From: Spartinivicinus poritis
Lineage (GTDB): Bacteria > Pseudomonadota > Gammaproteobacteria > Pseudomonadales > Zooshikellaceae
DNA length: 64,000 nt
Direction: 5' to 3'
Assembly (NCBI RefSeq): GCF_028858535.1
Contig: NZ_JAPMOU010000004.1
Coordinates: forward strand, 149,473-213,472
This document shows positions 13,786 to 42,362 of this stretch, piece by piece. Each line of letters begins with the position of its first letter. Within the stretch, counting starts at the first letter, position 1. The notes below the pieces were generated by a model. That model was not told the origin of the DNA, did not search any database, and was given only the letters and a program-made list of their open reading frames with translations. The position numbers and the translations under genes were made by a program.

Positions 13786-13914
13786 ACTACATCCTCACCT
13801 TTTGCTCTTGTCTTCATGATAAACCAACAGATCAAAACTTATTTGATTTACAGCAGGCATATACCCCACATGAATCATTTTTAGGTGTCAAAAATACTCA
13901 CATATCACTTCTAC

Positions 13915-17587: not shown

Positions 17588-17678
17588 GCAGAGCGCCAGT
17601 TTTTTCTGATACAACAGTCATCCCTCTTAAGTTACAGTTCTATACTTCTGGAATGTGCTTAAAGGTGGAGCGATATCA

Positions 17679-21530: not shown

Positions 21531-21663
21531 AAAGCAATCAGAAGACCGGTTAAGTAACAGATATGCCTTCAGGGCAATCGCTGCCGCTAAAAGCGATGTT
21601 CTTTGGCTATACAAATCAGTACTTTGCCAAGCACAGTGAATAAACCACCCCAGACATAGTAGC

Positions 21664-21814
21664 TGTCGCAAAAGTACTTAAAATCAAGTTCCTTCTCCCC
21701 TGTAGGGAGAAGGTTAGGATGAGTGAGTCCGCGTAGCGGAGACTTTAAAGTAACTTCACCCTCACCCCAGCCCTCTCCCAGAGGGAGAGGGAGCTAAATA
21801 TAACTTTTGCGACA
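21664..21814. mobile_element. 151-bp MITE/REP-like element with perfect 12-bp terminal inverted repeats in the hexR-zwf intergenic region
   Basis: TGTCGCAAAAGT at 21664 and ACTTTTGCGACA at 21803 flank three perfect hairpins: CCTTCTCCC-CTGTA-GGGAGAAGG, GTCCGC-GTA-GCGGAC-like, and CCCTCTCCC-AGA-GGGAGAGGG. No coding capacity. Confidence 0.6.
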
Positions 21815-23564: not shown

Positions 23565-24276
23565 TCAGCTAGAAGCGTTGTTAAATAACAAACTGGCTAA
23601 TTTTGATAATGCTGATCAGCTAACAACTGCCCTAGCCACGGATATTACCAAACAACTAACTAAAGCTATTGCAGAAAAAGGGCATGCCACTCTGATTTTA
23701 TCTGGAGGACGCACCCCTATTCCATTATTTAAGCAATTGGCCAATACGGACATTGAATGGGAAAAAGTTTATATCACGCTAGCCGACGAGCGTTGGGTAA
23801 ATCCTGATGATGAAGCGAGCAATGAACGATTAATCCGCCAACACCTATTACAACAGCATGCCGCTAAAGCTAGTTTTACCGGTTTAAAAAATCACCATGA
23901 TTTAGCTACAGCAGGCGAAACTGAATGTAACAATCTATTAGGCAAATTACCTTACCCATTTGATGTGGTAGTGCTGGGAATGGGCAATGACGGGCATACC
24001 GCTTCTTTATTTCCAGAATCTACACGCCTGGCAGAGGGGTTAGATCCCAATAACCCTAACCACTGCCTTGCTATCACCCCAATGCACGCTCCCCATGAGC
24101 GAATGAGTTTAACCTTTGCCTCATTAAAACAAGCCAAACAGATTATTTTACATCTTTGCGGAACAGATAAATTAAATACCTTACAAACTGCCTGTGAGGA
24201 TGGACCCATAGAAGACATGCCAATCAGAGCATTTCTCCGCAGCCAGTTGCCATTGACAGTCTATTGGAGTCCATAG
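23548..24276 (+). CDS. pgl: 6-phosphogluconolactonase
   Basis: 242 aa. Overlaps the zwf stop by 17 nt. LSGGRTP motif of the glucosamine-6-P isomerase / 6PGL family. Confidence 0.9.
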
Positions 24277-24301
24277 TTAGGGATTAAAGGTTTTAAGAAA
24301 T

Positions 24302-24955
24302 ATGACAACACAACTGCCAACGTCTATCACCAGCCAAATTGACCACATTTGTAGTCAGTCTCTGATAATGCCTGTTATTACAATTAATTCTGCTGAACAG
24401 GCATTACCTTTAGCAGAGGCATTATTAGCAGGCGGTATCAATGTATTAGAAATCACCTTACGTTCTGAATATGGCTTAACTGCCATTGCTGAGCTAAGAA
24501 AAAAACTACCAGAAGCCTGGATTGGAGCAGGCACAGTCACCAATCGCGAGCTATTAAAACAAGCGCAAGAGGCAGGCGCACAATTTATAGTAACGCCAGG
24601 CAGCACTGATGATTTATTAGCAGCCGGCGTAACAGCTAATATCCCACTATTACCAGGTATTGCTACTGGCTCCGAATTAATGATGGGGCTGGAAAAAGGC
24701 TATCAACGGTTCAAATTCTTCCCTGCCGCCATAAACGGAGGAACAGCAGCACTAAAAGCATTTTCAGGCCCATTTGGCCAGGTAAAATTCTGCCCAACCG
24801 GCGGAATCAATTTAGACAATGCCGCTGAGTACTTAGCCTTAAATAATGTGATCTGTATAGGCGGTAGCTGGGTAGTATCTAAAGACGCCATCGAAAATAG
24901 CGATTGGAAAAAAATCACTACTATAACCAAAGAAAGTATTGAGCAGTTGGCTTAA
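24302..24955 (+). CDS. eda: KDPG / KHG aldolase
   Basis: 217 aa. Typical Eda fold motifs (PVITIN...LEITLRS; the Schiff-base Lys region GQVKFCPTGGI). Confidence 0.9.
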   Translation: MTTQLPTSITSQIDHICSQSLIMPVITINSAEQALPLAEALLAGGINVLEITLRSEYGLTAIAELRKKLPEAWIGAGTVTNRELLKQAQEAGAQFIVTPGSTDDLLAAGVTANIPLLPGIATGSELMMGLEKGYQRFKFFPAAINGGTAALKAFSGPFGQVKFCPTGGINLDNAAEYLALNNVICIGGSWVVSKDAIENSDWKKITTITKESIEQLA

Positions 24956-25203
24956 TATACCCAATGCGAAGGGTTTTTAGGGCTAGCCTACAGAGGTGAG
25001 GCTAGCAATAATAGCATTAACTGATAAAAGAGCGTTATCGGCAAGCCATCAAGTGACGAGTTCCAGTAGCACTTTTTATATCAATTAAAGTTGCTACCGC
25101 AAGTCTTACAGTAGTAGACTTGCCCCCATGAGCCTATATTAATAGGTGACTGGGGTGAGGAATGAAGATAACAAAACCTAAAAATGATTCGCGACGGGTA
25201 TAA
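24956..25203 (+). repeat. MITE-like structured repeat, copy 1 (full length)
   Basis: Begins TATACCCAATGCGAAGGGTTTTTAGGGCTAGCCTACAG immediately after the eda stop. About 90% identical over ~205 bp to the inverted copy at 34301-34504. Contains the hairpin GCTAGCCT...AGGCTAGC. Confidence 0.8.
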
Positions 25204-25630
25204 TACAGCTAGTGAGGCACTTACAATAGTGTTTACTAAAGGGAGTAATGACTCCCTTTACATTTGAGCATGATATTACTTTTCTACCCCACTAAACATC
25301 GTTGTTTTTTTGCCTTTAATTACTAATGACCAAGCATTTTTTACGCCCGACCCAGTGTAATTATTTTTTTCTGTATCTTTAAACCAATAATACAGTGGCA
25401 AACCATCATAAGTTAACTGTAATCAATTACAACTTAACAACAATACAAAAATAACACCAAAACAATGTTTGATGAGCATACCCCCCCATAAAAGCTCTTG
25501 TTGACTTATATCAATCATTGCTTTTTATTATAATCAAAAGATTACTTTAGAGCTGCCATTACTCTAACTGTCAAGTAAAATAAGCACACGACAATGATCA
25601 ATAACCAACCAATTTTTAAAGGAGTAACCT

Positions 25631-25744
25631 ATGTTAGCTCGGATGGCATTGGCTATTATTATATGGGCATTAACTATTACCGCCATCAACTTACAAGCAG
25701 CTGAAGTTAACTGTTTCCACACCGAGCAAACATGTAATAATTAA
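25631..25744 (+). CDS. candidate small ORF (37 aa, hydrophobic, two Cys) with strong SD
   Basis: AAAGGAGT sits 6 nt before the ATG. Peptide MLARMALAIIIWALTITAINLQAAEVNCFHTEQTCNN. Lies in a 1.2-kb AT-rich non-coding leader upstream of the GspE-like gene. Not in the supplied ORF track (too short). Confidence 0.25.
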   Translation: MLARMALAIIIWALTITAINLQAAEVNCFHTEQTCNN

Positions 25745-26390
25745 CAGCAAGGAAAGATAAATAAGGATCTATAAAAAAAGGGACAATCACCAATATCATT
25801 TAATTCTAGTAATTCCTCGTAGCTGCTCATTTAAATGACTACGAGGACTTTTATATATAGTTCTTATAGTTTGCTAAAGCTTACTCCACTTCTTAATAAT
25901 AGCTTTCTAGCCTTATATAAAAAACAAGATAATGCAAGTCTATATAACCCCTTACATAATGCAGGGCAAACATACGATGTAAGTTGATTTAACACAACAA
26001 TAATATTATTAACGATTGTTTTATTATGCTAACTTTCAGCGCTTGTGAATAATAACCAACATGCGAGCGAATTAGCATTTTCAGGCATATCTAATGATTG
26101 TTTACCCCTGAAGTCAGTCACTGCTACTATAAAAATTTTGGATACTATAATAAGGATGTAACTCACTAGTTATTTTTTACTTTCAAAAATATAGGCGCAC
26201 TATATTAATTAGAAATAATTTTGCAATTAATATAATAAACAATTATATAACAATATTTTTACCTGCTTATGTATGATTACCAAAAAAATTTGCTAGAATT
26301 ATAAAGCGCTGTTGAAGAAATTGATATCACCTATGATCAACTATTTAACCAGCTTACCTTTACAACAATTTTTAGGTTAAGGTTAAGCTT

Positions 26391-28160
26391 ATGCCTGGCC
26401 ATAATACCACTAACTTAAGTGTTCAACCTCTTCCCGAACCTATCAAGTCTTCCAGCCTTTTACTTAAAAGGCTGGAAGCTGCGAGTACTCCGGTATCTTA
26501 TCGCCTGGATATTTTACTTATTGTATTCGGTTTTCTGTCACAAGAAGCAAGACATGAAAATATTAAATATTTAAATAAACTGAACGCTGACTCAGACATT
26601 GGCCACTACTTAATAAGTAAAAATATTATAACAGAAAGAGAGTTTCAGCGTGTTTTAGCTTATAAATTAGGTATGCCTTTTGTGTCACTTATAGATTTAG
26701 AATTTGACCTAAATATTATAAATCTTTTACCTGAAGAAGTCGCTAGAGACCATACTGTATTGCCAGTATTAGATCTTGGAGAAAAACTAGTCATAGCAAT
26801 GACGTTGCCACTAAAAAGCCAAACTATAAAATATTTAAGTTTTTTAACCAATTTTGTTATTGAGCCTGTAATTGCAGAGAGAAAAGATATTGAGTTCGCA
26901 ATAGCAAGACTATACGGGACCAGTAGTGAACTTGAAGCATTAGAAGAGTTTAAAAGCAACTACCATGAAGGAAACAAGCTAACTAGCAAAGACAACCTAT
27001 TACTTGGCCAAAAAAAGCCTATTGTAAAACTTGTTCATAATATGATTCTTGATGCTATTGGTAGCAAGGCCTCCGACATACATTTGAGACCTTGTGAAAA
27101 CGGGATAGATTTATTATTTAGAATTGATGGTAGCTTAATTAAAATACGAACATTTACTAAAGGGCTACTAGCCCCCATCATAAGCAGGTTAAAAGTCATG
27201 TCAGGAATGGACCTTGCTGCACACCATTTACCACAGGATGGACAGGCTTATTTAAAAAAAGGTGATCGGCAAATTGACTTACGGTTTTCAGTTATACCTA
27301 CTATTTATGGAGAAAGCGCAGTTATAAGAATTCTTGATGCAAAGTATGGCATGAAGAATTTATCTGGTATTGGTTTCTCAGAAAAAGACTTAACCTTATT
27401 TACTAATTTATTACACCGATCAAATGGTATTATTCTAGTGACAGGACCTACTGGCTCCGGAAAATCAACAACCCTTTATGCCGCTTTACAAGAAATAAAA
27501 ATGCGTAATGTTAATGTTGTTACCGTAGAAGATCCGGTTGAATATCATATTGACGGTCTTGTACAAATACAAGTCAACCACTCGATTGGCTACACTTTTT
27601 CAAGGGCATTAAGGCATATTCTAAGACATGACCCTGATGTGCTTATGGTAGGTGAGATAAGAGATTTAGAGACAGCACAAATGGCTATTGAATGTAGCCT
27701 TACAGGACATATAGTACTCTCTACGTTACATACTAATAGTGCAGCAACAACTATAGCACGTTTACTAGAAATTGGTATTGATCCTTATCTTGTAAATACT
27801 TCCTTGTTAGGTGTTTTAGCCCAGCGGCTTGTTCGTTGTAACTGTAAACATTGCTTAGTGGAAGAAAAAGTAAGGGCTGGTGTTCACTCTTCTCTGGGTT
27901 TGAAAGATGAAGAAACTTTTTATCGAGGTAAAGGTTGCGACCACTGCCGTAACACAGGTTATTCAGGCCGGCATGCCGTTTATGAGTTACTGATTATGAG
28001 CAATGAAATTCGTCAAGCAACTATTAATGGTAGTGGTGCTGAGCTTATTAAAAATGCAGCTATAAAAGAAGGTATGACACCGCTCACACAACAAGCACTT
28101 AGCTTGGCTCGTAATAAACTAACATCGTTAGAAGAAGTATATCGAACCATTTTAGATTAA
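26391..28160 (+). CDS. GspE/PilB-family type II secretion / type IV pilus assembly ATPase, orphan
   Basis: 589 aa. N-terminal T2SSE_N-like domain. Walker A VTGPTGSGKSTT, Asp box, His box and the tetracysteine motif (C..C...C..C: CNCKHC...CDHCRNTG). No other secretion or pilus genes nearby. Confidence 0.85.
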   Translation: MPGHNTTNLSVQPLPEPIKSSSLLLKRLEAASTPVSYRLDILLIVFGFLSQEARHENIKYLNKLNADSDIGHYLISKNIITEREFQRVLAYKLGMPFVSLIDLEFDLNIINLLPEEVARDHTVLPVLDLGEKLVIAMTLPLKSQTIKYLSFLTNFVIEPVIAERKDIEFAIARLYGTSSELEALEEFKSNYHEGNKLTSKDNLLLGQKKPIVKLVHNMILDAIGSKASDIHLRPCENGIDLLFRIDGSLIKIRTFTKGLLAPIISRLKVMSGMDLAAHHLPQDGQAYLKKGDRQIDLRFSVIPTIYGESAVIRILDAKYGMKNLSGIGFSEKDLTLFTNLLHRSNGIILVTGPTGSGKSTTLYAALQEIKMRNVNVVTVEDPVEYHIDGLVQIQVNHSIGYTFSRALRHILRHDPDVLMVGEIRDLETAQMAIECSLTGHIVLSTLHTNSAATTIARLLEIGIDPYLVNTSLLGVLAQRLVRCNCKHCLVEEKVRAGVHSSLGLKDEETFYRGKGCDHCRNTGYSGRHAVYELLIMSNEIRQATINGSGAELIKNAAIKEGMTPLTQQALSLARNKLTSLEEVYRTILD

Positions 28161-28189
28161 AAAAAAACAAACTTGCTATCAATGGAGTA

Positions 28190-28447
28190 TTGACTATGCA
28201 TATCTCCTTAACGAAACCAGAGCTAGATAGAGCACTGATCAAAGCCACAGAAATGTGGGAAAAAAGTGATGATAGTGACTATTTAGCAAAATCGTTACTT
28301 TATCATAATCAGTTAGTGAAAAAGCTAGATGCTGTTTATAAGGCAGCTAAGCTATATTTACATTCAGGTAGTGGAGCAAAGGAGCATACAAAACTCATTA
28401 GAGCTATAGATATAGTAGAACAAATCGAGTCAATTAAAGAATGGTAA
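28190..28447 (+). CDS. small helical hypothetical protein cotranscribed with the GspE-like ATPase
   Basis: 85-aa ORF 29 nt downstream of the ATPase gene. GGAG lies 8 nt before the ATG. Followed by a hairpin terminator. Confidence 0.45.
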   Translation: MTMHISLTKPELDRALIKATEMWEKSDDSDYLAKSLLYHNQLVKKLDAVYKAAKLYLHSGSGAKEHTKLIRAIDIVEQIESIKEW

Positions 28448-28465
28448 AAACCATATCATAATTCA

Positions 28466-28495
28466 GGTAATAGTTTTTCAAACTATTACCTTTCC
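28466..28495 (+). terminator. hairpin terminator between convergent GspE-operon and rtcR
   Basis: GGTAATAGTTT-TTC-AAACTATTACC (11-bp perfect stem) followed by TTTCC. Confidence 0.6.
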
Positions 28496-28524
28496 AACGA
28501 AAACGGAGATAACTTTATAAACCA

Positions 28525-30147
28525 CTATGATCTAACCTGATTAAAGCTCAAACCAAACTTAGACAAATAAATCCGTAAACGATGACTATCATTATTAGAT
28601 GCTTTTTGCGTTCGAGAATAATTAAACAATTCCCTTCCTGCCGCCGATAACGACGATTGCTGCTGGCAAATAGAAATCACCTGCTGTAGTTGTAACTGAT
28701 CAAACAAATCAATTGAAGCTAATTGTTCTTCACTAAAATAATGTGCTAAGTCTACACCAAAATGATTAACTTTGGGCTGATCGGTTTGCCAGTGCTTGGA
28801 TAACCGTTCTACTTCTTCACTGACAATGATTTCATTAATTCGTCCTCCTTCTGCTAACGTTAACATCCTTTGTACGCTGGCATTTAAGTCACGAAAATTG
28901 CCTCGCCAACTGGCCTGTGAAGATGTAGCAAAAGCTAGGTATTGCTGCTTTGCCTGTTGATTAAAACTGGCTTTATGGGCTGTTTTTCGCTCATGCTCCT
29001 GTAGCTCATAATTCAAGTTTGGCTCAATATCTTCTTTTCGTTGAGCTAAACCAGGCAGCTGATAAGTCCATAAGTTGATACGAGCTAATAAGTCATCACG
29101 AAATACCCCTTCTTCAACTGCCTGATATAGATCTTTATTGGTGCCAGCTATTTGTTGAAAATCACTTTGGACAGGCTTATCACTACCTAATGGGTAGAAT
29201 GTTTTTTCCTCAATAGCATGTAGTAGCATAGCTTGTTCATCTAGCCCAAGCTCACCAATTTCATCAAGAAATAACAACCCTTGGTTTGCTGCTAATAATA
29301 AACCATCCCGCTTATTTTGAGCTCCAGTAAATGCCCCTTTAATATGACCAAATAATGCTGACATAGCATTATCACCTTTTAAGGTTGCACAGTTAACTGC
29401 AATAAAATCACCAGCAACCAAGCCTTTTTGTTGTTTTAGCTGATAAATTCGTTTTGCCAGCATTGATTTACCTGCTCCAGTTGGCCCAGTAATTAACATG
29501 GGTGCCGTACTCCGAACAGCGACTTTCTCGATCTGCTCGATCATTTGGTTAAACGCTTTATTTTTAGTTTGAATGCCACTTTTTAAGAAAGACTGGTCAT
29601 CTAAAGCTTCTTTTTGAAAACGCTGCGCTAAGGCATCATATTTAGATAAATCCAGATCAATAACGGAGTAAGTACCAATCGCATTACCTTCTTCGTCTTT
29701 TACTCCTGGAGAAGACTGCAATAAACGGGCAGGTATATAGTTAGCTTCACACAATAAAAACCAACAAATCTGCGCTACATGGGTCCCAGTGGTGATGTGC
29801 AAATAGTAGTCTTCCTTTTCAGGCTTAAACGGGTAAGACTGACAGAACTCCAATAGCACACTATAAACTTCTTCAAAATCCCAAGGGTCGATAAAGCGAA
29901 CTGAATGCAAATTGTAAGCTGTATGATTAGACACCTCCTGCACATCTTCACACACCTTAGTTGCCAAGTTTTTATCCCTTGGTTGATGCAGCAACTCTAA
30001 ACGATCTAGCTTAAGATCCTTTTGCTGAAAAATACTAACGGTTGGCCGCCAGCTACTCCAACGCTTAGTCCCTTTACCTCGACGATCCTTAGTCGTACCC
30101 AGCAAACCAATGGCAACCTTAGTTTTGTTTGTTTTTTCACTCGTCAC
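28525..30147 (-). CDS. rtcR: sigma-54-dependent transcriptional regulator RtcR (N-terminal CARF domain, AAA+ sigma-54 activator, C-terminal HTH)
   Basis: 540 aa. Collinear strong similarity to E. coli RtcR as recalled from memory, not searched (VAIGLLGTT, WSSWRPTVSIFQQ, DRLELLH, WDFEEVY, HITTGTHVAQICWFLL, MIEQIEKVA). Walker A LITGPTGAGKS. GAFTGA sigma-54 contact motif. Confidence 0.9.
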   Translation of the reverse strand: MTSEKTNKTKVAIGLLGTTKDRRGKGTKRWSSWRPTVSIFQQKDLKLDRLELLHQPRDKNLATKVCEDVQEVSNHTAYNLHSVRFIDPWDFEEVYSVLLEFCQSYPFKPEKEDYYLHITTGTHVAQICWFLLCEANYIPARLLQSSPGVKDEEGNAIGTYSVIDLDLSKYDALAQRFQKEALDDQSFLKSGIQTKNKAFNQMIEQIEKVAVRSTAPMLITGPTGAGKSMLAKRIYQLKQQKGLVAGDFIAVNCATLKGDNAMSALFGHIKGAFTGAQNKRDGLLLAANQGLLFLDEIGELGLDEQAMLLHAIEEKTFYPLGSDKPVQSDFQQIAGTNKDLYQAVEEGVFRDDLLARINLWTYQLPGLAQRKEDIEPNLNYELQEHERKTAHKASFNQQAKQQYLAFATSSQASWRGNFRDLNASVQRMLTLAEGGRINEIIVSEEVERLSKHWQTDQPKVNHFGVDLAHYFSEEQLASIDLFDQLQLQQVISICQQQSSLSAAGRELFNYSRTQKASNNDSHRLRIYLSKFGLSFNQVRS

Positions 30148-30366
30148 ACCAACCTCACCTTATTACATTGCATACAAATGCTGCTACTCGGCCCTACCAA
30201 TTAACCGCTAACATACATATTATTTATATAGATCAATATTATATCCATATAGATATTTCAACAACAAAACTTCAGCGACAGCAATTCATGCTGGCCTCTC
30301 AGGTGATTCTTGCTATACCTTGAATATCAAGGCCTCCAACACTTTTAACAAAGAAATTTTAAAAGT

Positions 30367-30382
30367 TGGCACGTTAATCGCC
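30367..30382 (+). promoter_or_regulatory. candidate sigma-54 (-24/-12) promoter divergent from rtcR
   Basis: TTGGCACGTTAATCGCC. It has an exact TGGCACG -24 element and GG-N10-GC spacing, with -12 TCGC (one mismatch to TTGC). Orientation reads rightward into the tRNA-like RNA region, mirroring the rtcR/rtcBA divergent arrangement. Confidence 0.4.
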
Positions 30383-30607
30383 TTATGATTACTGTGCAAA
30401 GCGGAATGCTTTAGCAGGTCTGGTTTTTTGCTTCAAACCAAAGCCAGCCTGGTAACTCTTGTTTCAAGTAAGTTGTACCAAAGCGTCCCAAGACACAGTG
30501 CCCTTTCTCGGCATGGATTCGTAAGAATCTTATTGGGTTTTTTATGATATGGCATACAACTGGGTTCGAGTCCCTAAAAACCACCATTCATACTGGCTTT
30601 TAACCAG

Positions 30608-30680
30608 TGCTTGATAGCTCATTTGGTAGAGCAGTTGCTTAGGGAGCAATTGGTAGAAGGTTCGATTCCTTCTCAAGCTG
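30608..30680 (+). tRNA. tRNA-like element / atypical tRNA (anticodon AGG, U1.U72 mismatch), possibly a Y-RNA-like tRNA mimic or pseudo-tRNA
   Basis: Folds into a full cloverleaf by hand. Acceptor is 6 bp plus a U.U pair. U8-A9 present. D-arm GCTC/ATTTGGTA/GAGC with G18G19. Anticodon arm GTTGC/TTAGGGA/GCAAT (U33, anticodon AGG, R37). 5-nt variable loop. T-arm GAAGG/TTCGATT/CCTTC. No encoded CCA. The body resembles tRNA-Lys but the anticodon loop is altered. AGG is not a normal bacterial anticodon. Confidence 0.5.
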
Positions 30681-30720
30681 TATAAATGTAAAAAGACTAC
30701 GCAAGTAGTCTGCAATGAAA

Positions 30721-30849
30721 TATACCCAAAGCGAAGGGTTTTTAGGTGAGGCTATCGAGTGATGAAGCCCCGTGAGCCTATAAATAATAGGTGATTGGGG
30801 TGAGTCACGATGATAACAAAGCCTAAAAGCGATTCGCGAAAGGTATAAA
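30721..30849 (+). repeat. MITE-like structured repeat, copy 2 (internally deleted, direct orientation relative to copy 1)
   Basis: TATACCCAAAGCGAAGGGTTTTTAGG ... GAGCCTATAAATAATAGGTGATTGGGGTGAG ... GATAACAAAGCCTAAAAGCGATTCGCGAAAGGTATAA matches both ends of copy 1. Confidence 0.75.
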
Positions 30850-31231
30850 AGAGGTTAGCGGTTGTTGCCGCTGTTTAGCTTAATTAAATAACAGCATTAA
30901 ATTTATCAAAACTTAAAGTGAATGCAGGAAGCAATTACTTAAGGAATGGTGACTTTAATGAGGTAGCTAAAGCTGTACTAGTAGTTACCAGTTATTTAAT
31001 TATTTGGTTCGTTATTGAATCATTCCTTACAGGGTTACATTCTGTGGATCAACCACATACGATGTACAAATGTAAGCGAACCATTCTTTAACCACCACTA
31101 TTCAAGTAACCGCCCCTAACTTCTTTAGTTATGATGAGTCGCTTTTTAGTAGTTAATCAACTACTGACCAGTACTCATCATGACTAATAAGTCCTATTTT
31201 TAAGGGCATTTAGATTTAATGGAGATGTATT

Positions 31232-32770
31232 GTGTTTAAGAAAATAGTTGTCGGGCAAAATGAGCGACTAATTGTTGTTAAAGATAAAAGATTAAGTAAA
31301 GTTCTATCGACAGGAGTACATTATCTGCCTATTTGGCAATATGATGATGTAGAATTGGTTAGTACTGAGTCAGTACGCTTCACTCATGACAGCCTAGAAC
31401 AGTGGCTAAAAGAGCCTGTATTTTTACAATATTTTGATAAACTAGAGTTAGGCCGATTTGAAGTTGGGTTAGTTTATAAACATGGTCAGCTTTGGCAGTT
31501 ATTAAACCCGGCGACTACCCACTATTTGTGGAAAAATAGTGATGATATTGAGGTGCGTACCATCAATACCGAAAATAGTTATTATCTTGAAGATGATCTA
31601 TTATGGCAATTAACAAACAAAGAGCAGTTTGTTATTAATGCTAATACCAGTAATGTTACTACCCATAAAGTTAATGCAGGATTCGTTGCTTTAATCTATG
31701 TGGACAGCCAACTTATCGATTTGCAAGGTGAAGGTGAGTTTGGAGTATGGCAGTATCAGCGCAAAATTGAAGTAGTCATGATGGATACCCGCAAAGGGTT
31801 AAAACTTGATTATATATTGCAGGAAAACTGGTTAGAAATTCCTGCTGTTGCAGAACAAATTGCGCTATTTAAAACTGAACCACAGCAAGTTGGGCTACTG
31901 TATGAAGTACAGCATGGCCAGCGTCGTTTTAATCAATTACTGCCACCAAATACTGAAATTGCTGTATGGCAACAGAATAAAGTGTGGGAGCTTGATCTGG
32001 TTGATATCAACAACGACTTTCGGGTAACCAAACCATTGCTAGATAGCTTACGTCAGTATTTAAGTGGCCAGTGGTTAACAACCTCTATCGACCAACAGCA
32101 TATCGGTTTGCTACTGCAAGATGGTCAATTGGTTAGCACCCTGAATACTGGGCTACACGCTTATTGGCCTTTTGGTCGCCAACTGGAAATAAAACAGTTT
32201 GATTTACGCTGGCAAACAGTGGAAGTCAGTGGACAAGAAATATTAACCAAAGATCGGGTTAGTGTGCGGGTCAACCTAAACGCCAACTATCGTATTTTAG
32301 ATGCGGTAACGACTTTTGAAAGCGTTAACAATGTTAATGAGTTTATTTACCGTACGTTACAGCTAGCATTACGAGAAGCCATAGGTACACGAAACTTAGA
32401 TGATTTGTTAATGGATAAAGAGCATGTAAATCAGCTATTGCTAAAGCAATCAGCGGAGCATTTATCATCTATTGGGATAGAGCTTGGTCAACTGGGAATA
32501 AAAGACATTATTTTACCTGGTGAGATGAAGGAAATTCTTAACCAGGTGGTTAATGCCCAAAAATCAGCAGAAGCTAACAGCATCAAGCGTCGGGAAGAAA
32601 CAGCTGCTACTCGTAGCCTGCAAAACACCGCCAAAGTTATGGAAGGCAACCCAACTTTGCTGCGCTTGAAAGAACTGGAGTCATTGGAGAAAGTAGCAGA
32701 AAAAATTGACCAATTAAATGTATATGGAGGATTAGAACAAGTAATGAATGGCTTAGTTAAGCTAAAGTAA
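31232..32770 (+). CDS. SPFH/Band 7 (stomatin/prohibitin-like) domain protein
   Basis: 512 aa. N-terminus VVGQNERLIVVKDKRL is typical of the SPFH beta-start. The C-terminal region carries an SPFH core and coiled-coil (ILPGEMKEILNQVVNAQKSAEA...). No NfeD partner adjacent. Confidence 0.75.
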   Translation: MFKKIVVGQNERLIVVKDKRLSKVLSTGVHYLPIWQYDDVELVSTESVRFTHDSLEQWLKEPVFLQYFDKLELGRFEVGLVYKHGQLWQLLNPATTHYLWKNSDDIEVRTINTENSYYLEDDLLWQLTNKEQFVINANTSNVTTHKVNAGFVALIYVDSQLIDLQGEGEFGVWQYQRKIEVVMMDTRKGLKLDYILQENWLEIPAVAEQIALFKTEPQQVGLLYEVQHGQRRFNQLLPPNTEIAVWQQNKVWELDLVDINNDFRVTKPLLDSLRQYLSGQWLTTSIDQQHIGLLLQDGQLVSTLNTGLHAYWPFGRQLEIKQFDLRWQTVEVSGQEILTKDRVSVRVNLNANYRILDAVTTFESVNNVNEFIYRTLQLALREAIGTRNLDDLLMDKEHVNQLLLKQSAEHLSSIGIELGQLGIKDIILPGEMKEILNQVVNAQKSAEANSIKRREETAATRSLQNTAKVMEGNPTLLRLKELESLEKVAEKIDQLNVYGGLEQVMNGLVKLK

Positions 32771-32806
32771 ACGTTGTGGTGCATATAGATGCACCACAAC
32801 GTTTTT
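32771..32806. terminator. bidirectional hairpin terminator between the convergent SPFH and 438-aa genes
   Basis: Perfect 14-bp stem ACGTTGTGGTGCAT-ATAG-ATGCACCACAACGT followed by TTTTT. An A-tract lies on the other side. Confidence 0.65.
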
Positions 32807-32832
32807 AATAAAAACAATTGATATTAAATAGG

Positions 32833-34149
32833 TTAATTACTTTCCCAATTGAATACTGTGCCGTCACTAAAATGAATCATCACTGTATTAGGCTTCACTA
32901 CTTTTTTGTTTAATAAATAATCTTTACTGCTAAAATTGGCGGTAATCGTGGAGCCATCACTAAAGGTTGTTTGTTGTACTTGTCGACTTTTAGTTAAGTC
33001 AAGAAATTTCACTAAAGCCTTATCCCAAAGTTTTTCATGAGCTATCTGAAATCCTTTCGCATAGTGTTTTAAAGCAGGCAACCGCTTTCGTAAGCTATTA
33101 CGACTAATATGCAACATTGGCGGTGTGTTATATAACATCGCGGTTAAATCACGTACCACTTTCACATCGGAAAATTTTAAACTGTCTGCCCCCCAATGGT
33201 AGCCATTAATAACAGCATCATGAAACACGGCCTGATATAACGGCAGTTTATACTCGGGCGCAAACAATAAATTTTTATAAAGCATTTTGACTTGAGCTGG
33301 CTTAAAGAAAACCTGCGGCTCGTCATTTGGCCACCAAGTACCAAGATAATATGGTGATTGTTTATTTTTACGCATGTCTGGATCACGCCAACCAAAACCT
33401 GTAGTTTGAATTCCATGAGCAAATACTATTGACGACGTATTAATTGCATTACCATCTTCAGAGCCTAATGGTAGTTGATATTGATCCACAAACCACTGCA
33501 AGCGATAATTAAATCCTTTTGCCATGGTAGACTGGGAGTGTAAACGTTTAGAATGGTAATCCTCATAAAGCATTCCAGTGGCATCAGCGTCCAAAAATAA
33601 ACTATTAAAACCACCATAGTGCATGATTTTAGCAGTACGTTGCTGATAGTAAGTTTGCATACAACTTGGATTGGTATATACTCCTTTTCCTTTATAGCCC
33701 ATTTTTTTATATCCATCTTTCTTAACAATGCCACAGTTTTCCCGTAACTGGCTAGGTATCTGAGCAGTCAGCCAATTATCATTTACCCCCATCGGTATTG
33801 CTGTATTATACGAATCATAGGTGCTTATTAAGTAGCCAGCCTGTTTTGCCGCTATGACAGCCTCTGGATGATAAAAAGCTGAGGTCCAACTGGGTGTCAG
33901 TAATAATAATTTATTCAATTTGGCTGTTTGAAAATCCTCTATGACAGGTTTGGATAATCCCTGTCCCCAATTGACTACTGGCTTTAAAAAAACTCCCAAT
34001 CTTGCTTTCACTATTTTTTTTCTTTTTTTTGCTACCAGGTACTGCTGATCAATAAAATCTCTTTTATCCGGATCAGAAGAGACTGGTAATACTTTTGTGA
34101 ACGCATGATTAAGCATTTCAATCACTTTACGCTGGTGATAGTGATTCAT
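32833..34149 (-). CDS. hypothetical protein (large, possibly carbohydrate-active/TIM-barrel-like)
   Basis: 438-aa ORF with good coding statistics. No confidently recognised motifs; the carbohydrate-enzyme idea is tentative. Confidence 0.55.
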   Translation of the reverse strand: MNHYHQRKVIEMLNHAFTKVLPVSSDPDKRDFIDQQYLVAKKRKKIVKARLGVFLKPVVNWGQGLSKPVIEDFQTAKLNKLLLLTPSWTSAFYHPEAVIAAKQAGYLISTYDSYNTAIPMGVNDNWLTAQIPSQLRENCGIVKKDGYKKMGYKGKGVYTNPSCMQTYYQQRTAKIMHYGGFNSLFLDADATGMLYEDYHSKRLHSQSTMAKGFNYRLQWFVDQYQLPLGSEDGNAINTSSIVFAHGIQTTGFGWRDPDMRKNKQSPYYLGTWWPNDEPQVFFKPAQVKMLYKNLLFAPEYKLPLYQAVFHDAVINGYHWGADSLKFSDVKVVRDLTAMLYNTPPMLHISRNSLRKRLPALKHYAKGFQIAHEKLWDKALVKFLDLTKSRQVQQTTFSDGSTITANFSSKDYLLNKKVVKPNTVMIHFSDGTVFNWESN

Positions 34150-34300
34150 CCATTGTGAATTTATACCCGTATCGAATCATTTTTAGGTTTTGTTATCTTC
34201 GTTCCTAATCACCAAGGATGGTGTGAATGCAGTTAATGCATTATGACATGGATGTCATGTATTAGGGCAATGCAGGAGTAGTTGCCTAGGAGCATTTAAC

Positions 34301-34504
34301 TGTCACCCCAATCACTTATTAATATAGGCTCATGGGGACAAGTCTACTACTGTAAGACTTGCGGTAGCGACTTTAATGGATATAAAAGTGCTACTGGAAC
34401 TCGTCACTTGATGGCTTACCAATAACGCTGTTTTATCAATTAATGCTATTATTGCTAGCCTCACTGCTGTAGGCTAGCCCTAAAAACCCTTCACATTGGG
34501 TATA
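34301..34504 (-). repeat. MITE-like structured repeat, copy 3 (inverted relative to copy 1)
   Basis: Its reverse complement begins TATACCCAATGTGAAGGGTTTTTAGGGCTAGCCTACAGCAGTGAGGCTAGC and stays ~90% identical to copy 1 through ...GGGGTGA. Confidence 0.8.
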
Positions 34505-34610
34505 TATAACGTTAAAAACACATAAATATTAAAGCAATCAATATCATAAAAAGCGTTTATAACAATTTTTTACCAGTTAGGCTTATGAAAATTATATAGC
34601 TCAGAACCTA

Positions 34611-34871
34611 TTACTGCCACTTGCACAGAGGCTGCTCATAGATAGTATATTTCTCACAGCTACTTTTAGTCCTAAATCCTCCACACCATTTTTTTAAATT
34701 AAAATCTTGCGTCTGGTAATTATTCTCTGAATTTTGTAAACAGCTTTGTGCTTTAACTTCAACATAACCTGGATATAAACTTAGCTCTGGTTTATCATAA
34801 CAATAATTCATGACTGATTCTTTATCATATGATCCAATAAATACAAATAAATTATATAATTCTTTTAACAT
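34611..34871 (-). CDS. small Cys-rich hypothetical ORF downstream of bla (overlaps its 3' end by 20 nt)
   Basis: 86-aa ORF with 6 Cys. No SD check possible. Could be spurious. Confidence 0.25.
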   Translation of the reverse strand: MLKELYNLFVFIGSYDKESVMNYCYDKPELSLYPGYVEVKAQSCLQNSENNYQTQDFNLKKWCGGFRTKSSCEKYTIYEQPLCKWQ

Positions 34872-35643
34872 GTAATGCTTCTTTTATAATCTGTTTTCTT
34901 AGTTTTCGTTGACTATCTTTCATTAGATCTATATTTATTGCAAAAAACCATGTTTGATTATCCTTCTCTAGGAAACCAACATACCAGCCTATGTCTATCC
35001 CTTTTCCATTTTTCATTACCCAACCTGTTTTTCCATATAGTTTATATGATGGATTACTTTCATTAAGCATAATCTTCTTAGTTTTTTTCTGATATTTTTT
35101 GTAGTATGGCAGTCTTTCAGAATATAATTTTTTTAGAAACTCAATTTGTTGATATGCATTGATTCGTAACTTTCCATCTAACCAAAACGTCGTTAAATTG
35201 CCTAACTCTCTATTACCATAGTTCATTTTTTTTAAGTGATACCGATACTGCAATCTCCCAACATCTTGAGCTACCTCTTGATAACACCATATACATGAAT
35301 TGGATAATGCAGACTGTAATGTATGATTTTGATTCCATATCTTCCATCCTTTATCTTTTCCATCCCATAAAAATACATGACCATCAGGATTTATAGCCCC
35401 CTCTGCAAGACCAATTAGTGTATTAGGGATTTTGAATGTTGATGCAGGTAAATAATTTTTTTTTGCTCTAGATTCATTATGTATGTACACTTTTTTTCCA
35501 TCAGTGGACGATATAACCAATGTACCATTTACATTATATTTATTGAAAATGCTTAATAATTGCTTATCCTCAACCCCATATGAAAAAACAGCCTGAATAA
35601 ATAAAAGCGAACCTAAAAATAGGTTTTTGATATGTATCTTCAT
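34852..35643 (-). CDS. blaOXA: class D (OXA-type) beta-lactamase
   Basis: 263 aa with a signal peptide. Class D motifs are present: STFK (PASTFKIPN), YGN (NYGNRELG), KTG (YGKTGW) and W.xG (IGWYVGF). Confidence 0.85.
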   Translation of the reverse strand: MKIHIKNLFLGSLLFIQAVFSYGVEDKQLLSIFNKYNVNGTLVISSTDGKKVYIHNESRAKKNYLPASTFKIPNTLIGLAEGAINPDGHVFLWDGKDKGWKIWNQNHTLQSALSNSCIWCYQEVAQDVGRLQYRYHLKKMNYGNRELGNLTTFWLDGKLRINAYQQIEFLKKLYSERLPYYKKYQKKTKKIMLNESNPSYKLYGKTGWVMKNGKGIDIGWYVGFLEKDNQTWFFAINIDLMKDSQRKLRKQIIKEALHVKRII

Positions 35644-36243
35644 GATTTTAGAAGCCTATTAATGTAAATTGAAAAAACTATTTTATATAAATAACTAAGA
35701 AACTTTGTACTTTTCTGATGATCAATTATGATAAAAAATGGCATTAAGTACCCATTTATTTAATCTTACCGAGCACCCTATTATTACACGCCTTGCCTCT
35801 CACGCTAGAATTTAAACAGTAAATTAGTATTGTATTTATTGTAATGGGTATTACACTCCAAAGGTAAAAGTCAATAAAATATTTACCTATTTACAAAGAA
35901 AAATATAGAGGGTAATCAACAAGAAAGAAGATTATTATTTAACTTGGCATTAATTATATTTACATTCTTAAAAGATGTTTAATTACACAATAAATTCTGA
36001 ACTTAATAGATATTTGTACTTATTGTGGTAGATATTCGTCCATCCAACGTACACTTTAAGTGTGAAGTTATTAAAGTGTACGCTATGACCTACTAAATCT
36101 TTAATTGAAGGGTTCGTTATTATTTTTCGTCTATATTGAGTTTAATTCTGAACAGTTGACTTGCTGGAGATAAAATAGTGATATTTCTTTATTTGATATA
36201 ATTTCTTGCTTTGGCTTTATTTTTACTGTTGCACAAAACAAAT

Positions 36244-36777
36244 TTAAAGATTGAATCCAGCTTTTATCAATGTATTTTTTTTGTGCTGGTTGATTTTTTT
36301 ATAACATGTATTTTTATCATTGCATGTCTTTCTTATATCAGTAATTGTTCCTCCCATCTGATATCCATCTTTTTCTGCATTGAATAACGTATAGCCTACA
36401 TGCACCTTAAACTGGCCATTTTTACATGGCTGAATCACTTTAGTAATTAGTGAGTTAGATTTATTATTAGGAGAATAATCTGCAACTTCGTTTAGTACTT
36501 TTTCTTTTATAATGTCTTCAAAGCTATTATATGTACGATTAGGAGAACCTATTAATGCAGCAATTTCACTTGATTCTATTCTCTTAGCAAAATCACTACG
36601 TTTTAATTTAACCTTATCAAGATCTAATTGCTTTTCTTTACAGGGAGAGCGTATAACACTTAATTCATAAGGCGTTAAATTATATACTTTAAAAGTATAA
36701 TTCTCAGGTGCAGCCTGAACTGTCAGTACTACCATTAAATTACTAATGATAGCTAGTTTAATTCTATACAACCACAT
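36244..36777 (-). CDS. secreted hypothetical protein
   Basis: 177 aa. Signal peptide ...LMVVLTVQAAP. Lys-rich and AT-rich gene in the low-GC insertion. Confidence 0.5.
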   Translation of the reverse strand: MWLYRIKLAIISNLMVVLTVQAAPENYTFKVYNLTPYELSVIRSPCKEKQLDLDKVKLKRSDFAKRIESSEIAALIGSPNRTYNSFEDIIKEKVLNEVADYSPNNKSNSLITKVIQPCKNGQFKVHVGYTLFNAEKDGYQMGGTITDIRKTCNDKNTCYKKINQHKKNTLIKAGFNL

Positions 36778-36947
36778 TATTAATTACTCAAATGCTGACT
36801 ACTTTGATATAACACTCAACAGCAGGCAGACATCTTCTAGTTCTATCAGATTACATTAAGCTGGTGAAGGATACAGATAAAGGCTCCTTTAAACATCATA
36901 GGTTACTGCCCCTATCAAGATTATTATTTTATGCCATAAATACTAAT

Positions 36948-37250
36948 CTAATTAGCATTACAAGGATATCGACTTACAAATGCTCCTTCAGGATTTTTAG
37001 TTTTTGCAAGATCGGCAACTGGATATTTTTCACACATTTTGGTAATTTTGCTACCAAGATTAAACTTATCTTCAATATGGTGTTCTTCCGACGCAATAAC
37101 CTGACCATCCTTATAAGCATAAAATGTGTAGATACCCTTTGGCAGACCACCAACTGCATTTCTTAACCATTGACTACTACAACCACTCAGCAAAATTAAA
37201 CCAACAAATAACAAGACCAATTTTTCTTTCATAACAAATCTTTTAGTCAT
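36948..37250 (-). CDS. small lipoprotein (hypothetical)
   Basis: Lipobox LLSGCSS after a hydrophobic segment. 100 aa. Confidence 0.5.
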   Translation of the reverse strand: MTKRFVMKEKLVLLFVGLILLSGCSSQWLRNAVGGLPKGIYTFYAYKDGQVIASEEHHIEDKFNLGSKITKMCEKYPVADLAKTKNPEGAFVSRYPCNAN

Positions 37251-37385
37251 ATAAATAATTGGAGATAAGTAAACTTATTATTTTCAAATAATATTAACAA
37301 AATGTCACGTGAATGTAACATTTTCAACAAATATAAGACAATTTAAGTATAAACACCTACTCTTTTTGAAGATATTGAGCGAATA

Positions 37386-37691
37386 TCAATCAGATCTGTT
37401 TTCATTTATTAGCATTGAGTAAATGCAATTCAATGTTAGACTTTCAACTACCTCTAACTCAAAACTACCAGTGTTTAAACAGTTTTTTGCAACAGTTATG
37501 ACTGAGTCAATCATAGACAATGCCCATTCTATAGGGATATCTTCTCTTAGTTTTCCTTTAAGCTTCAAAGCAATTAACTCACTTTTAAGCCTGTTTGTAG
37601 CATTAAATTTTTCACCTTGAATTAATTGTATTACTAAATACTCTATATTACATTTTTTTCTTTCAAATACAGTTGATGAGTTTTCGTTCAA
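37386..37691 (-). CDS. hypothetical protein
   Basis: 101-aa ORF. Preceded (5') by a copy of a ~40-bp motif that is also found 5' of bla. Confidence 0.4.
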   Translation of the reverse strand: MNENSSTVFERKKCNIEYLVIQLIQGEKFNATNRLKSELIALKLKGKLREDIPIEWALSMIDSVITVAKNCLNTGSFELEVVESLTLNCIYSMLINENRSD

Positions 37692-37970
37692 TTACATTTA
37701 CCTTATTATTAGAATGCCTATTACCTAACAAGCAAGTATATCCAACAGAATTGCTTTGGCAGGCAATCCTACACCAAGGCATTATAATAACAATGGTTTT
37801 ATGAAGATCAATTATGACAAAAAATGACATTAAGATAATTTTAAGTGCTCACTTTTCAACAGTGATTCCAGCATTCCAACACAACAACACCTTCTCAACA
37901 CCAATATTTACACCAATTTATTAACGACACCTGAACTATTGTAGTTACACTGCTCCTTTCCCAGACACGC

Positions 37971-38213
37971 TTGCACAGTTGGCTGTATTATCTAACGTTT
38001 ATTTTCTTAACTGCCTTTGTATTTTTAAATATGATGGTAGATACGATCTTAGATGTAATGAGCCAAGAGCAAGAAAAATTTCGCGCTGAATCTCATGGTG
38101 AAACAGAAGAAGGTGGTACACCTGCCAGTCGGGCTCAGATTGAAAAGCTAGAAAAAGAGTTAACTGAAATAAAAGCGCTATTAAAACAACAAACATCTAT
38201 CAAAGAACAATAG
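37971..38213 (+). CDS. hypothetical membrane-anchored coiled-coil peptide
   Basis: 80 aa. N-terminal hydrophobic helix then a charged coiled-coil. Weak support. Confidence 0.3.
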   Translation: MHSWLYYLTFIFLTAFVFLNMMVDTILDVMSQEQEKFRAESHGETEEGGTPASRAQIEKLEKELTEIKALLKQQTSIKEQ

Positions 38214-38277
38214 CTACTTTTAGTTAGCCCAGCGAAATTTATCTTCTGAGCTAACACAAACTGTAGGACACCTTTAA

Positions 38278-39240
38278 TCAGGAAATATAACTATTATTAA
38301 GTGCCGCAGCCGCTCCCACTAACCCAGGATATTCACTTAATACTAAATAAGTAGGTATTTTTTCTGCGTAGCTTTGTAACCGCCCTTTATTTTCAAATGA
38401 TTGCCTAAATTGACTCGCAGCAAAAAAATCTTTAAAGCGTGGAATAATACCACCCATTATGTAAACGCCCCCTTCTGCTCCCAAGATAAGCGCTGCATTA
38501 CCTGCAGCAGCACCCAACAAATTACAGAAATGGGCTAGTACTTGATGCTCTATTGAGTTTTCATCACTTAATGCTATGGATGATATATCAGCTGCTGACT
38601 GCTGCTTAACAGGTACTTTGTTTAATTGGCAATGGGCTTCATATAAATCCACCAAGCCGGCACCACATAGCAGTCTTTCAACTGATACGCGTGGATACTT
38701 TTTTAAGAAAAATTCCAGAACATCCATTTCAAAGCGATTGCGGGGGGCAAAATCCACATGGCCGCCTTCGCCGGATAATGCTAACCAACCACTGCTGGTT
38801 GAAGCTAATCCTGCCATACCTAGCCCTGTGCCCGGACCAATCACCAATTTAGTTTTATTTGCAACAGCTTCACCGCCGCCTATTTGCATTAATTCATCGT
38901 TAGTTAAATAAGGTACTGATAAGGCAAGTGCCGTAAAATCATTAATTACCTTAAATGAATCAAAACCAAATTGCTGCTGCACAGCTGACTGTGAAAAATC
39001 CCAATGGTTATTGGTCATTTTAATTCGGTCTTGATGAATAGGACAAGCAAAGGATAAACAAGCTTGTTTGACATCGGGATTGCCCACCAATGCTAAATAA
39101 TCAGCTAACGCATCTGGCATATTGTTATAGTCTGCGCAGGGCAGCACTTCGATTAACTCAGGCTGCACACCCCCATCTAATACCATGGCAAACCGGGCGT
39201 TTGTGCCCCCAATATCACCAACGACAATTGGTTGGTTCAT
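38278..39240 (-). CDS. glk: glucokinase
   Basis: 320 aa. N-terminus [15 protein letters not shown] matches the Glk ATP-binding motif. Overlaps the edd stop by 4 nt. Confidence 0.9.
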
Positions 39241-42332: not shown

Positions 42333-42362
42333 ATTAGACGATAGCCTGTAGAAGATTACCTG

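Follow-up and report, generated by a model that had tools for sequence, protein, structure and literature searches.

Conserved core and variable arms in the region between eda and glk of Spartinivicinus poritis

Gene content of the eda-glk interval

We analysed a 64-kb window of the Spartinivicinus poritis genome (contig NZ_JAPMOU010000004.1; about 38.6% GC), in which the Entner-Doudoroff (ED) genes eda and glk are separated by 13,322 bp (24956-38277). A preliminary description of the window had put this distance at about 13.3 kb, and eda indeed ends at 24955 and glk at 38278. It holds three copies of a repeat that resembles a miniature inverted-repeat transposable element (MITE), together with genes for an RNA-repair regulator (RtcR), a tRNA-like RNA, a Band-7/SPFH protein, an orphan ATPase and a class D beta-lactamase. 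Comparison with two congeners shows that the core of the interval is conserved in place, that its arms turn over, and that copies of MITEs or insertion sequences (IS) lie at the junctions.

The operon zwf-pgl-eda closes with eda and the convergent operon edd-glk with glk, so that the interval separates two operons rather than interrupting one, as had been proposed at first. The cargo originally listed (a GspE-like ATPase, RtcR, a tRNA-like RNA, an SPFH protein, an OXA beta-lactamase and small secreted proteins) and the gene calls themselves are borne out by our profile searches (Table 1).

Table 1 Features of the eda-glk interval of S. poritis and of its borders (positions in the window; aa, amino acids; ORF, open reading frame).
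Feature	Positions	Strand	Evidence and remarks
hexR	20670-21671	-	
zwf-pgl-eda	22086-24955	+	
eda (KDPG aldolase), left border	24302-24955	+	NCBIfam NF004325, 297 bits; aa identity 92% S. ruber, 95% S. marinus
MITE copy A	24955-25208	+	full form, ~250 bp; at this site in S. poritis only
37-aa signal-peptide ORF, AAGGAG ribosome-binding site	25631-25744	+	tblastn 81% S. marinus, 63% S. ruber, syntenic
GspE/PilB-type ATPase, N-terminal MshEN, orphan	26391-28160	+	Pfam T2SSE 402 bits, MshEN 60 bits
orf85, 85 aa, 30 nt downstream of the ATPase gene	28190-28447	+	82-91% aa identity to congeners, same place
rtcR	28525-30147	-	NCBIfam NF038308 equivalog, 802 bits (cut-off 650); Pfam RtcR and Sigma54_activat; 91-93% aa identity to congeners
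Predicted sigma-54 type promoter TGGCACGTTAATCGC (GG-N10-GC), divergent from rtcR	30367-30381	+	sequence reading
Predicted non-coding transcript, ~320 nt	30393-30715	+	start and end predicted
tRNA-like RNA	30608-30680	+	ARAGORN; Rfam tRNA, 59 bits
MITE copy B, short form, two ends only	30719-30853	+	
Band-7/SPFH protein, 512 aa	31232-32770	+	Pfam Band_7, 122 bits; 90-95% identity to congeners
GH129-family glycoside hydrolase gene, 5'-truncated	32833-34149	-	Pfam Glyco_hydro_129, 440 bits
MITE copy C, long form	34161-34505	-	
orf86, Cys-rich	34611-34871	-	
Class D beta-lactamase, signal peptide	34852-35643	-	NCBIfam bla_class_D_main NF012161, 268 bits
orf177, secreted protein	36244-36777	-	
orf100, lipoprotein	36948-37250	-	
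orf101	37386-37691	-	
orf80, 3' fragment (remnant) of an ion-transporter gene	37971-38213	+	
glk (glucokinase), right border	38278-39240	-	NCBIfam NF001416, 387 bits; 100% identical to the NCBI glucokinase of S. poritis
glk-edd	38278-41066	-	
gap-pyk	41328-43811	+	

A core shared by three Spartinivicinus species

Synteny was compared in three genomes of one genus: S. poritis, S. ruber (CP048878.1) and S. marinus (JAPJZK010000001.1), with nucleotide identities taken from blastn and amino-acid identities from tblastn. A search with RtcR returned an ortholog of 91% identity in S. ruber, and a cluster look-up gave the S. marinus orthologs of RtcR and Glk. The distance from eda to glk is 14.8 kb in S. 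ruber and 17.3 kb in S. marinus, compared with 13.3 kb in S. poritis.

The same core occurs in all three species, in the same order and orientation: the signal-peptide ORF, the GspE/MshEN ATPase gene, orf85, rtcR, the sigma-54 promoter with the tRNA-like RNA, the Band-7/SPFH gene and orf100. The S. ruber locus reads edd, glk, a GH129 gene interrupted by an IS-like insert, a lipoprotein of 94 aa, Band_7 (512 aa), the tRNA-like 'Pro AGG' gene, a 260-aa binding-protein gene, RtcR, an 88-aa ORF, the GspE-like ATPase, a GDSL lipase, a 43-aa ORF, eda, pgl, zwf and hexR. The S. marinus locus reads hexR, zwf, pgl, eda, an IS3 transposase, the GspE-like ATPase, an 83-aa ORF, RtcR, the tRNA-like gene, Band_7, a 94-aa ORF, a 101-aa ORF, 7.8 kb of cargo, glk and edd. 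The cargo comprises genes for DinB, an ornithine cyclodeaminase-like protein, an aminotransferase, an AMP-binding enzyme, DUF2000, EamA and Dabb proteins.

Nucleotide identity to S. ruber is 79-88% for the core and 83% for the ED genes; to S. marinus it is 88-91% and 92-95%, respectively. By these alignments, the core has diverged about as much as the ED genes that flank it. Of the interval, 70.4% can be matched in synteny to one congener or more, and 48.9% to both. The remaining 29.6% is found in S. poritis only (24956-25198, 25281-25485, 25857-25918, 26033-26288, 34163-36921 and 37832-38243). The preliminary description had called the interval horizontally acquired accessory DNA and had said that it would be ancestral if its genes also lay at this place in relatives. 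Both S. ruber and S. marinus have the core genes there; the idea of accessory DNA stands only for the arms, about 30% of the interval.

Outgroup arrangements were drawn from more than 20 Marinobacter loci and from GCA_028280065.1, and here the ED genes are compact, as first supposed. Marinobacter has the order hexR< zwf> pgl> eda> <pyk <gap edd> glk> (arrowheads give orientation), with the next ED gene roughly 10-1,400 bp from eda; GCA_028280065.1 is equally compact. In the Spartinivicinus lineage, the separation of eda from glk is thus a derived state, as is the reversed orientation of the pyk-gap/edd-glk block. The underlying genome scan, based on Eda, returned distant relatives only (at most 57% identity), missed the genus and was used for outgroup order alone. 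Beyond the genus, the nearest relatives of RtcR are found in Hahella (64-65% identity), which belongs to the phylogenetically expected neighbours.

None of the ORFs in the interval carries an integrase or transposase domain in Pfam, PADLOC and NCBIfam searches. No att-like direct repeats were found to flank it, the flanking repeats being inverted copies of a dispersed MITE, and the tRNA-like gene is internal to the interval, as part of the RtcR unit, and not a flanking target. In a plasmid similarity search, the sole match of the interval was the ion-transporter fragment; a phage collection was not searched. The possibility that the ED genes themselves are the acquired part, raised by a Glk search that showed no close relative, was rejected as an artefact of clustering at 90%: the S. 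ruber and S. marinus Glk proteins sit in the same cluster.

Four variable slots

Around and within the core, four slots gain and lose DNA in each lineage. The first is the few bases right after the eda stop codon, where S. poritis has MITE copy A, S. marinus an IS3-family element and S. ruber neither. Just right of copy A, S. marinus matches again (25199-25280, 90% identity); the GDSL lipase gene of S. ruber stands further on.

The second slot is the intergenic region between rtcR and the Band-7 gene. It holds MITE copy B in S. poritis and S. ruber, and the binding-protein gene in S. ruber. The latter (locus 8958-9740), a 260-aa periplasmic-binding-protein-like gene that is 39% identical to 15310-16074 of the window, occupies with its flanks about 1.46 kb between the rtcR start and the sigma-54 promoter block, and so moves rtcR away from its target promoter.

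The third slot lies behind the terminator hairpin of the Band-7 gene, where S. marinus has orf100 and orf101 immediately and S. ruber orf100 alone. S. poritis has 4.1 kb in between (32814-36921), made up of the GH129 gene, MITE copy C, orf86, the beta-lactamase gene and orf177. The fourth, glk-proximal slot contains 0.4 kb with orf80 in S. poritis, the 7.8 kb of cargo, with MITE pieces on either side, in S. marinus, and the full-length GH129 gene split by an IS in S. ruber. By blastn, orf80 is 77-85% identical in nucleotides to the 3' ends of genes annotated as 'ion transporter' on Pseudoalteromonas and Vibrio replicons; it has no counterpart in the congener intervals.

The GH129 gene is 87% identical in nucleotides to that of S. 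ruber and absent from the S. marinus interval. In S. ruber the gene is longer by about 322 N-terminal codons, signal peptide included, and stands on the opposite side of orf100. Homology between the two stops exactly at the inner terminus of MITE copy C, which marks the S. poritis gene as a 5'-truncated copy. Copy C sits at the junction of the truncated GH129 gene and the block found in S. poritis only.

Another variable slot lies outside the interval, upstream of hexR. The segment 17590-20669, with genes at 17655-18437, 18460-19074, 19077-19937 and 20046-20459, is missing from this position in S. marinus, in which the homologs of 16691-17587 and 16186-16566 come directly after hexR.

A dispersed family of MITE-like repeats

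The first base of copy A is the final A of the TAA stop codon of eda, in line with the preliminary description. Its reading of three copies, with A and C inverted relative to each other, is also correct: copy C is 94% identical to copy A and has an extra stretch of about 97 nt, and copy B retains only the two ends. The ends are 26-nt imperfect terminal inverted repeats with the pattern TATACCC-N3-GCGAA-N3-TTTTTAGG, which occurs eight times in the window against 0.15 expected. The copies are non-coding and 130-345 bp long, and copy A forms a long hairpin when folded (z = -7.4). All three are flanked by TA; copy A is compatible with a 5-bp TAATA duplication, the TA possibly being part of the terminus. 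A Logan short-read assembly of the same strain (SRR22372477) has the genes of the window and breaks at copies A and C.

Outside the interval, solitary ends are found at 9800 and 13860 (13860-13885), and diverged copies at about 9799-9956 and 56320-56430. The S. ruber and S. marinus loci have further copies of the terminal repeat, whose search in relatives had been suggested. Neither congener has copy A, though the genes to its right are present. Copy B occupies the same site in S. ruber, where a second short copy lies inverted beside it, and is precisely absent from S. marinus, which has the empty site. The IS3 element that S. marinus carries at the site of copy A has different termini, TGTGGACCCC.

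To judge from their ends and distribution, the repeats are a dispersed MITE-like family and not a pair of island borders; ends and copies outside the interval speak against the brackets that were originally drawn. In architecture they are like the bacterial MITEs and modular repeats such as Correia/NEMIS of Neisseria, ERIC, RUP and the TA-targeting elements of IS630/Tc1 type. The shared features are the short non-coding sequence, terminal inverted repeats, a strong hairpin and length variants through internal modules, as well as intergenic TA-flanked copies, presence or absence between species and breaks in short-read assembly.

Base composition

The GC content of the interval is 35.2%, compared with 39.5% for the remaining window and 43-44% for the flanking ED genes; the S. 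ruber genome has 40.1% (PMC7484904). This contrast is exaggerated, since the flanking ED genes are above average. Among the core and neighbouring genes, RtcR has 39.9% GC, SPFH 38.9%, GH129 37.5% and the GspE-like ATPase 36.4%. At third codon positions (GC3), where the window has a mean of 0.317 with a standard deviation of 0.049, RtcR (0.325), SPFH (0.339) and GH129 (0.323) are close to the mean, and the GspE-like ATPase (0.253) is 1.3 standard deviations below it.

GC is clearly low only in 24956-26390 (32.7%, mostly non-coding) and in 34611-38277 (about 30%), where orf86, the beta-lactamase gene, orf177, orf100 and orf101 have a GC3 of 0.21-0.24. It is to these two arms that the initial wording 'markedly AT-rich' applies, and not to the core genes with their ordinary GC3 of 0.25-0.34. 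A genomic island is expected to be atypical across the whole element; here low GC3 is confined to the beta-lactamase arm, to which the low non-coding left end is added. The apparent drop in GC is largely the product of above-average flanks and non-coding DNA.

The RtcR, tRNA-like RNA and Band-7 unit

RtcR is built of a CARF-type sensor, an AAA+ sigma-54 interaction domain and a helix-turn-helix (HTH) domain (PADLOC RtcR--CARF_AAA_HTH; Pfam RtcR and Sigma54_activat). The predicted sigma-54 promoter is conserved in the three species. It opens a block that ends with the hairpin 30694-30711 and is about 95% identical across the three, more than any protein-coding part of the interval. The predicted transcript has three parts: a leader of about 215 nt, the cloverleaf (30608-30680) and the GCAA-tetraloop hairpin (30694-30711).

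The cloverleaf has the anticodon AGG ('Pro AGG'), U-U at position 1:72 and no encoded CCA. We aligned five such sequences, from S. poritis, S. ruber, S. marinus, Hahella and GCA_050289245.1. Their cloverleaf positions are 96% paired, with four compensatory pairs, and pairing falls to 33-47% when the partners are slid. The five genes share acceptor and D arms; their loops are AGG, UUU or aberrant, and the anticodon is not conserved.

The leader (30393-30607), likewise about 95% identical in the three species, contains a degenerate T-arm-like sequence, GGGUUCGAGUCCC, followed by ACCACCA. It may be a degenerate first tRNA-like unit. Around nine metagenomic Band-7 loci show, by ARAGORN, a tandem pair in which an aberrant 'tRNA-???' directly precedes the tRNA associated with Band-7 (b7a-tRNA). 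At a permissive threshold, Rfam finds only tRNA in 30150-31250, with no Y-RNA-like family and the leader unassigned. The minimum free energy of the 327-nt RNA region is not significantly lower than that of shuffled sequences (z = -1.55), and we therefore claim no structure for the leader.

On the same strand, the tRNA-like gene lies 552 nt upstream of the Band-7 start. Hahella ganghwensis and GCA_050289245.1 have the same layout, with rtcR divergent from a tRNA-like gene, Band_7 and RlaP, and with RtcB and RtcA downstream of rtcR. A metagenome scan with the Band-7 alignment gave 80 loci, 62 of them with enough upstream sequence for a count; a same-strand tRNA-like gene lies at most 800 nt upstream in 46 of the 62, at a median of 401 nt and with very diverse anticodons. 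Where at least 5 kb was available on both sides, RtcB was present in all five loci with RtcR. On six metagenomic contigs, Band-7 and tRNA-like genes stand within arrays of 13-21 tRNA genes, often with no RtcR or RtcB within 5-8 kb.

The Band-7 protein is 46% identical over 368 aa to the H. ganghwensis Band-7 encoded beside RtcR-RtcB-RtcA and, on this similarity and linkage, is its ortholog. Its N-terminal region of about 180 aa is duplicated relative to the 391-aa Hahella protein, whose N-terminus matches twice by tblastn. RtcB and RtcA, sought by tblastn with Hahella queries, and RlaP were found neither in the 64-kb window nor in the S. ruber and S. marinus intervals, the remainder of the genome being outside the search. 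The rtcR gene of Zooshikella harenae (JAGSOY010000041.1; 58% identity) adjoins sbcCD and a GDSL lipase gene, and no Band-7, tRNA-like gene, RtcB or RtcA occurs within 10 kb of it.

The unit appears to match the RNA-repair module with a Band-7-associated tRNA, here without adjacent RtcB and RtcA. The preprint bioRxiv 10.1101/312249 credits this prediction to Burroughs and Aravind 2016 and describes the b7a-tRNA as lacking experimental validation at the time. Shared with that module are a divergent rtcR, a sigma-54 promoter and a same-strand tRNA-like gene a few hundred nucleotides upstream of Band-7, as well as a cloverleaf kept by compensatory changes with an anticodon free to vary. The Spartinivicinus unit differs in having no RtcB, RtcA or RlaP nearby, in the N-terminal duplication of Band-7 and in the conserved leader of about 215 nt. 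A further link between SPFH proteins and rtc genes is PaFlo8 of P. aeruginosa, which is embedded in an rtc locus (PMC13086221).

The Salmonella rsr-yrlBA-rtcBA operon (PMC7790460, PMC4201824) also combines RtcR and a sigma-54 promoter with an operon that starts with a tRNA-mimicking non-coding RNA. It encodes a Ro60 protein and Y RNAs with a tRNA-like domain, whereas the Spartinivicinus unit has neither Rsr/Ro60 nor rtcBA, and its RNA is a complete cloverleaf and not a Y RNA with a Ro-binding stem.

Salmonella RtcR binds tRNA fragments with 2',3'-cyclic phosphates (PMC7790460). By analogy with its family, the Spartinivicinus RtcR would sense RNA ends of this kind and activate the sigma-54 promoter. 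Activation would yield the tRNA-like RNA and, by read-through of the hairpin, which has no U-tract, the Band-7 mRNA.

An ATPase gene and small ORFs beside the unit

The GspE-like ATPase is 84-86% identical in amino acids to its congener counterparts and scores below the NCBIfam cut-offs of both PilB (513 bits; cut-off 676) and GspE (499; cut-off 630). No other secretion or pilus genes lie near the pair that it forms with orf85 (26391-28447), its MshEN domain being of the type that binds cyclic di-GMP. This pair is kept beside rtcR across Spartinivicinus and not in Hahella. Pfam, NCBIfam and PADLOC searches gave no match for orf85, and among the interval proteins PADLOC matched no known defence-system model apart from RtcR.

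Just downstream of eda, all three species have an ORF of 37-43 aa with a strong ribosome-binding site (S. ruber locus 15424-15555; S. marinus about 14168-14278). Its signal peptide is conserved and its short mature part variable, with two cysteines in S. poritis (AEVNCFHTEQTCNN).

One bold possibility, which we consider improbable, is that in Spartinivicinus, and perhaps in Zooshikellaceae, RtcR has been uncoupled from RtcB and RtcA and controls only the tRNA-like RNA, with its degenerate leader, and the enlarged Band-7 protein. The ATPase and orf85 might be partners, and the output would be an alarm for RNA damage or phage at the membrane and not ligation. RtcR could then be activated without RtcAB, on which the activation of E. 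coli RtcR is reported to depend (PMC9650030).

A class D beta-lactamase in the right arm

MITE copy C, orf86, the beta-lactamase gene and orf177 form a block of 2.8 kb and 30% GC that is present in S. poritis only and abuts the truncated GH129 gene. The translated enzyme has the catalytic motifs STFK, YGN and KTG and a signal peptide. It passes the cut-off of the general class D model (250 bits) and falls below that of all named OXA families, with a best score of 227 bits against 515 for OXA-198-like; by profile, the closest named families are OXA-198-like and OXA-372-like.

Its nearest relatives belong to Zooshikella harenae (69%) and Z. marina (66%), and all others are at most 52% identical. 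For S. ruber and S. marinus there is no database protein, nor a counterpart in the intervals. The Zooshikella gene has unrelated neighbours, and orf86 and orf177 have no counterparts in any of the relatives' loci compared. The enzyme represents an unnamed class D lineage, so far found only in Zooshikellaceae.

A distant low-GC donor was considered for this block and rejected. With the nearest relatives in a sister genus, transfer within the family or vertical descent with loss is more likely. The block is lineage-specific within the genus, and the donor, if any, is likely to be a relative; the block may instead descend vertically, with two losses.

Origin of the interval

We consider the eda-glk interval a long-standing flexible region of Spartinivicinus between convergent ED operons, with a probability of roughly 0.8. 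Its core would be ancestral to the three species and vertically inherited, with edges that turn over, so that it is not a discrete island acquired by the S. poritis strain. The hairpin-forming MITE with TATACCC termini would insert at TA-rich intergenic sites, and its copies would then serve as homology for deletion and for the exchange of segments. Such use in recombination would explain the position of the copies at junctions, including the exact point of GH129 truncation.

The locus resembles flexible genomic islets and integration hot spots among core genes in its conserved borders, eda and glk, in cargo that differs among the three congeners and in the IS, MITEs and remnants at the junctions. 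It differs in that about half of the interval is conserved in the genus, which makes it a mosaic of a fixed core and small hot spots and not one replaceable cassette.

Several points weigh against this reading. With three genomes of a single genus, 'ancestral' holds only at that depth, and the compact ED cluster of the outgroups implies that the core arrived between eda and glk at an earlier time. MITE copy B is common to S. poritis and the more distant S. ruber and missing in the closer S. marinus, which requires a precise loss or two independent insertions. The GH129 gene lies to one side of orf100 in S. poritis and to the other in S. ruber, and no simple single event was found that explains the differing order. 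A clean target-site duplication was sought at the three MITE copies with an ambiguous result, TA or TAATA, and no autonomous partner element with matching termini was identified, the rest of the genome being outside the scope. Finally, the transcription of the RNA and the read-through into Band-7 are predicted from sequence.

An old inversion in the genus ancestor is a possible, if somewhat less than even, account of how the core reached its place. Breakpoints after eda and beyond glk would have flipped the pyk-gap/edd-glk block and brought a resident RtcR/Band-7 unit and the ATPase gene between eda and glk, with no foreign DNA needed. The block is indeed inverted between Marinobacter, eda> <pyk <gap edd> glk>, and Spartinivicinus, eda> (interval) <glk <edd gap> pyk>. 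The Hahella relatives of RtcR and Band-7 are the neighbours expected, and the composition of the core is native. But no outgroup was found with RtcR/Band-7 just beyond glk, and the module has unrelated neighbours in Hahella and GCA_050289245.1. The ED gene order is moreover shuffled in several ways among gammaproteobacteria, which makes the ancestral state uncertain.

The compact outgroup clusters would suit a single horizontal insertion of the core (ATPase, RtcR, tRNA-like RNA and Band-7) in the stem lineage of the genus, since domesticated and drifted in composition to match. Units of Band-7 and tRNA-like genes often stand in contexts that look mobile, such as large tRNA arrays on metagenomic contigs, and the usual partners RtcB, RtcA and RlaP are missing, as if a partial locus had been transferred. 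However, the composition and the nearest relatives fit vertical descent, and no mobility genes or att sites remain; we hold such an insertion to be rather unlikely.

It is very doubtful that the 9-kb segment between copies A and C (25204-34160) is a cassette inverted by homologous recombination. The inverted arms of 204 nt and 46 nt, 94% identical and 9 kb apart, would allow it, but the genes between them face the same way relative to eda in each of the three species. Copies A and C are found only in S. poritis, so that any flipping would be recent, and nothing points to the other orientation, the short-read assembly simply breaking at the repeats.

That the whole of 24956-38277 is one horizontally acquired low-GC island, inserted at the eda stop and delimited or assembled by MITEs, is hardly credible: it would account for the four GC points between the interval and the rest of the window, the MITE at the eda stop, a cargo unrelated to sugar metabolism and the compact outgroup clusters, but two other species have this core at the corresponding place, with a divergence like that of the flanks, its genes are typical in GC3, the MITE family is dispersed and lacks copy A in congeners that have the genes to its right, and no integrase, att site or plasmid match supports it (phage records not searched).

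Significance

Each element described here is of a known kind, whether the flexible region between operons, the family of MITEs, the unit of Band-7, b7a-tRNA and RtcR, or the unnamed beta-lactamase of class D. The result is mainly a correction, by which a gap that looks like an island is, from the synteny of three genomes, mostly old and vertically inherited. The flexible region is also a clean natural example of how MITE and IS copies mark precisely where genes were gained, truncated or replaced between sister species. The unnamed beta-lactamase lineage is relevant to surveys of environmental resistance reservoirs.

For the Band-7-associated tRNA, the covariation of the cloverleaf and the position of the tRNA-like gene in 46 of 62 metagenomic loci bring independent comparative support. 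A lineage that keeps the RtcR, Band-7 and tRNA-like unit without adjacent RtcB and RtcA could help to separate the roles of its parts.

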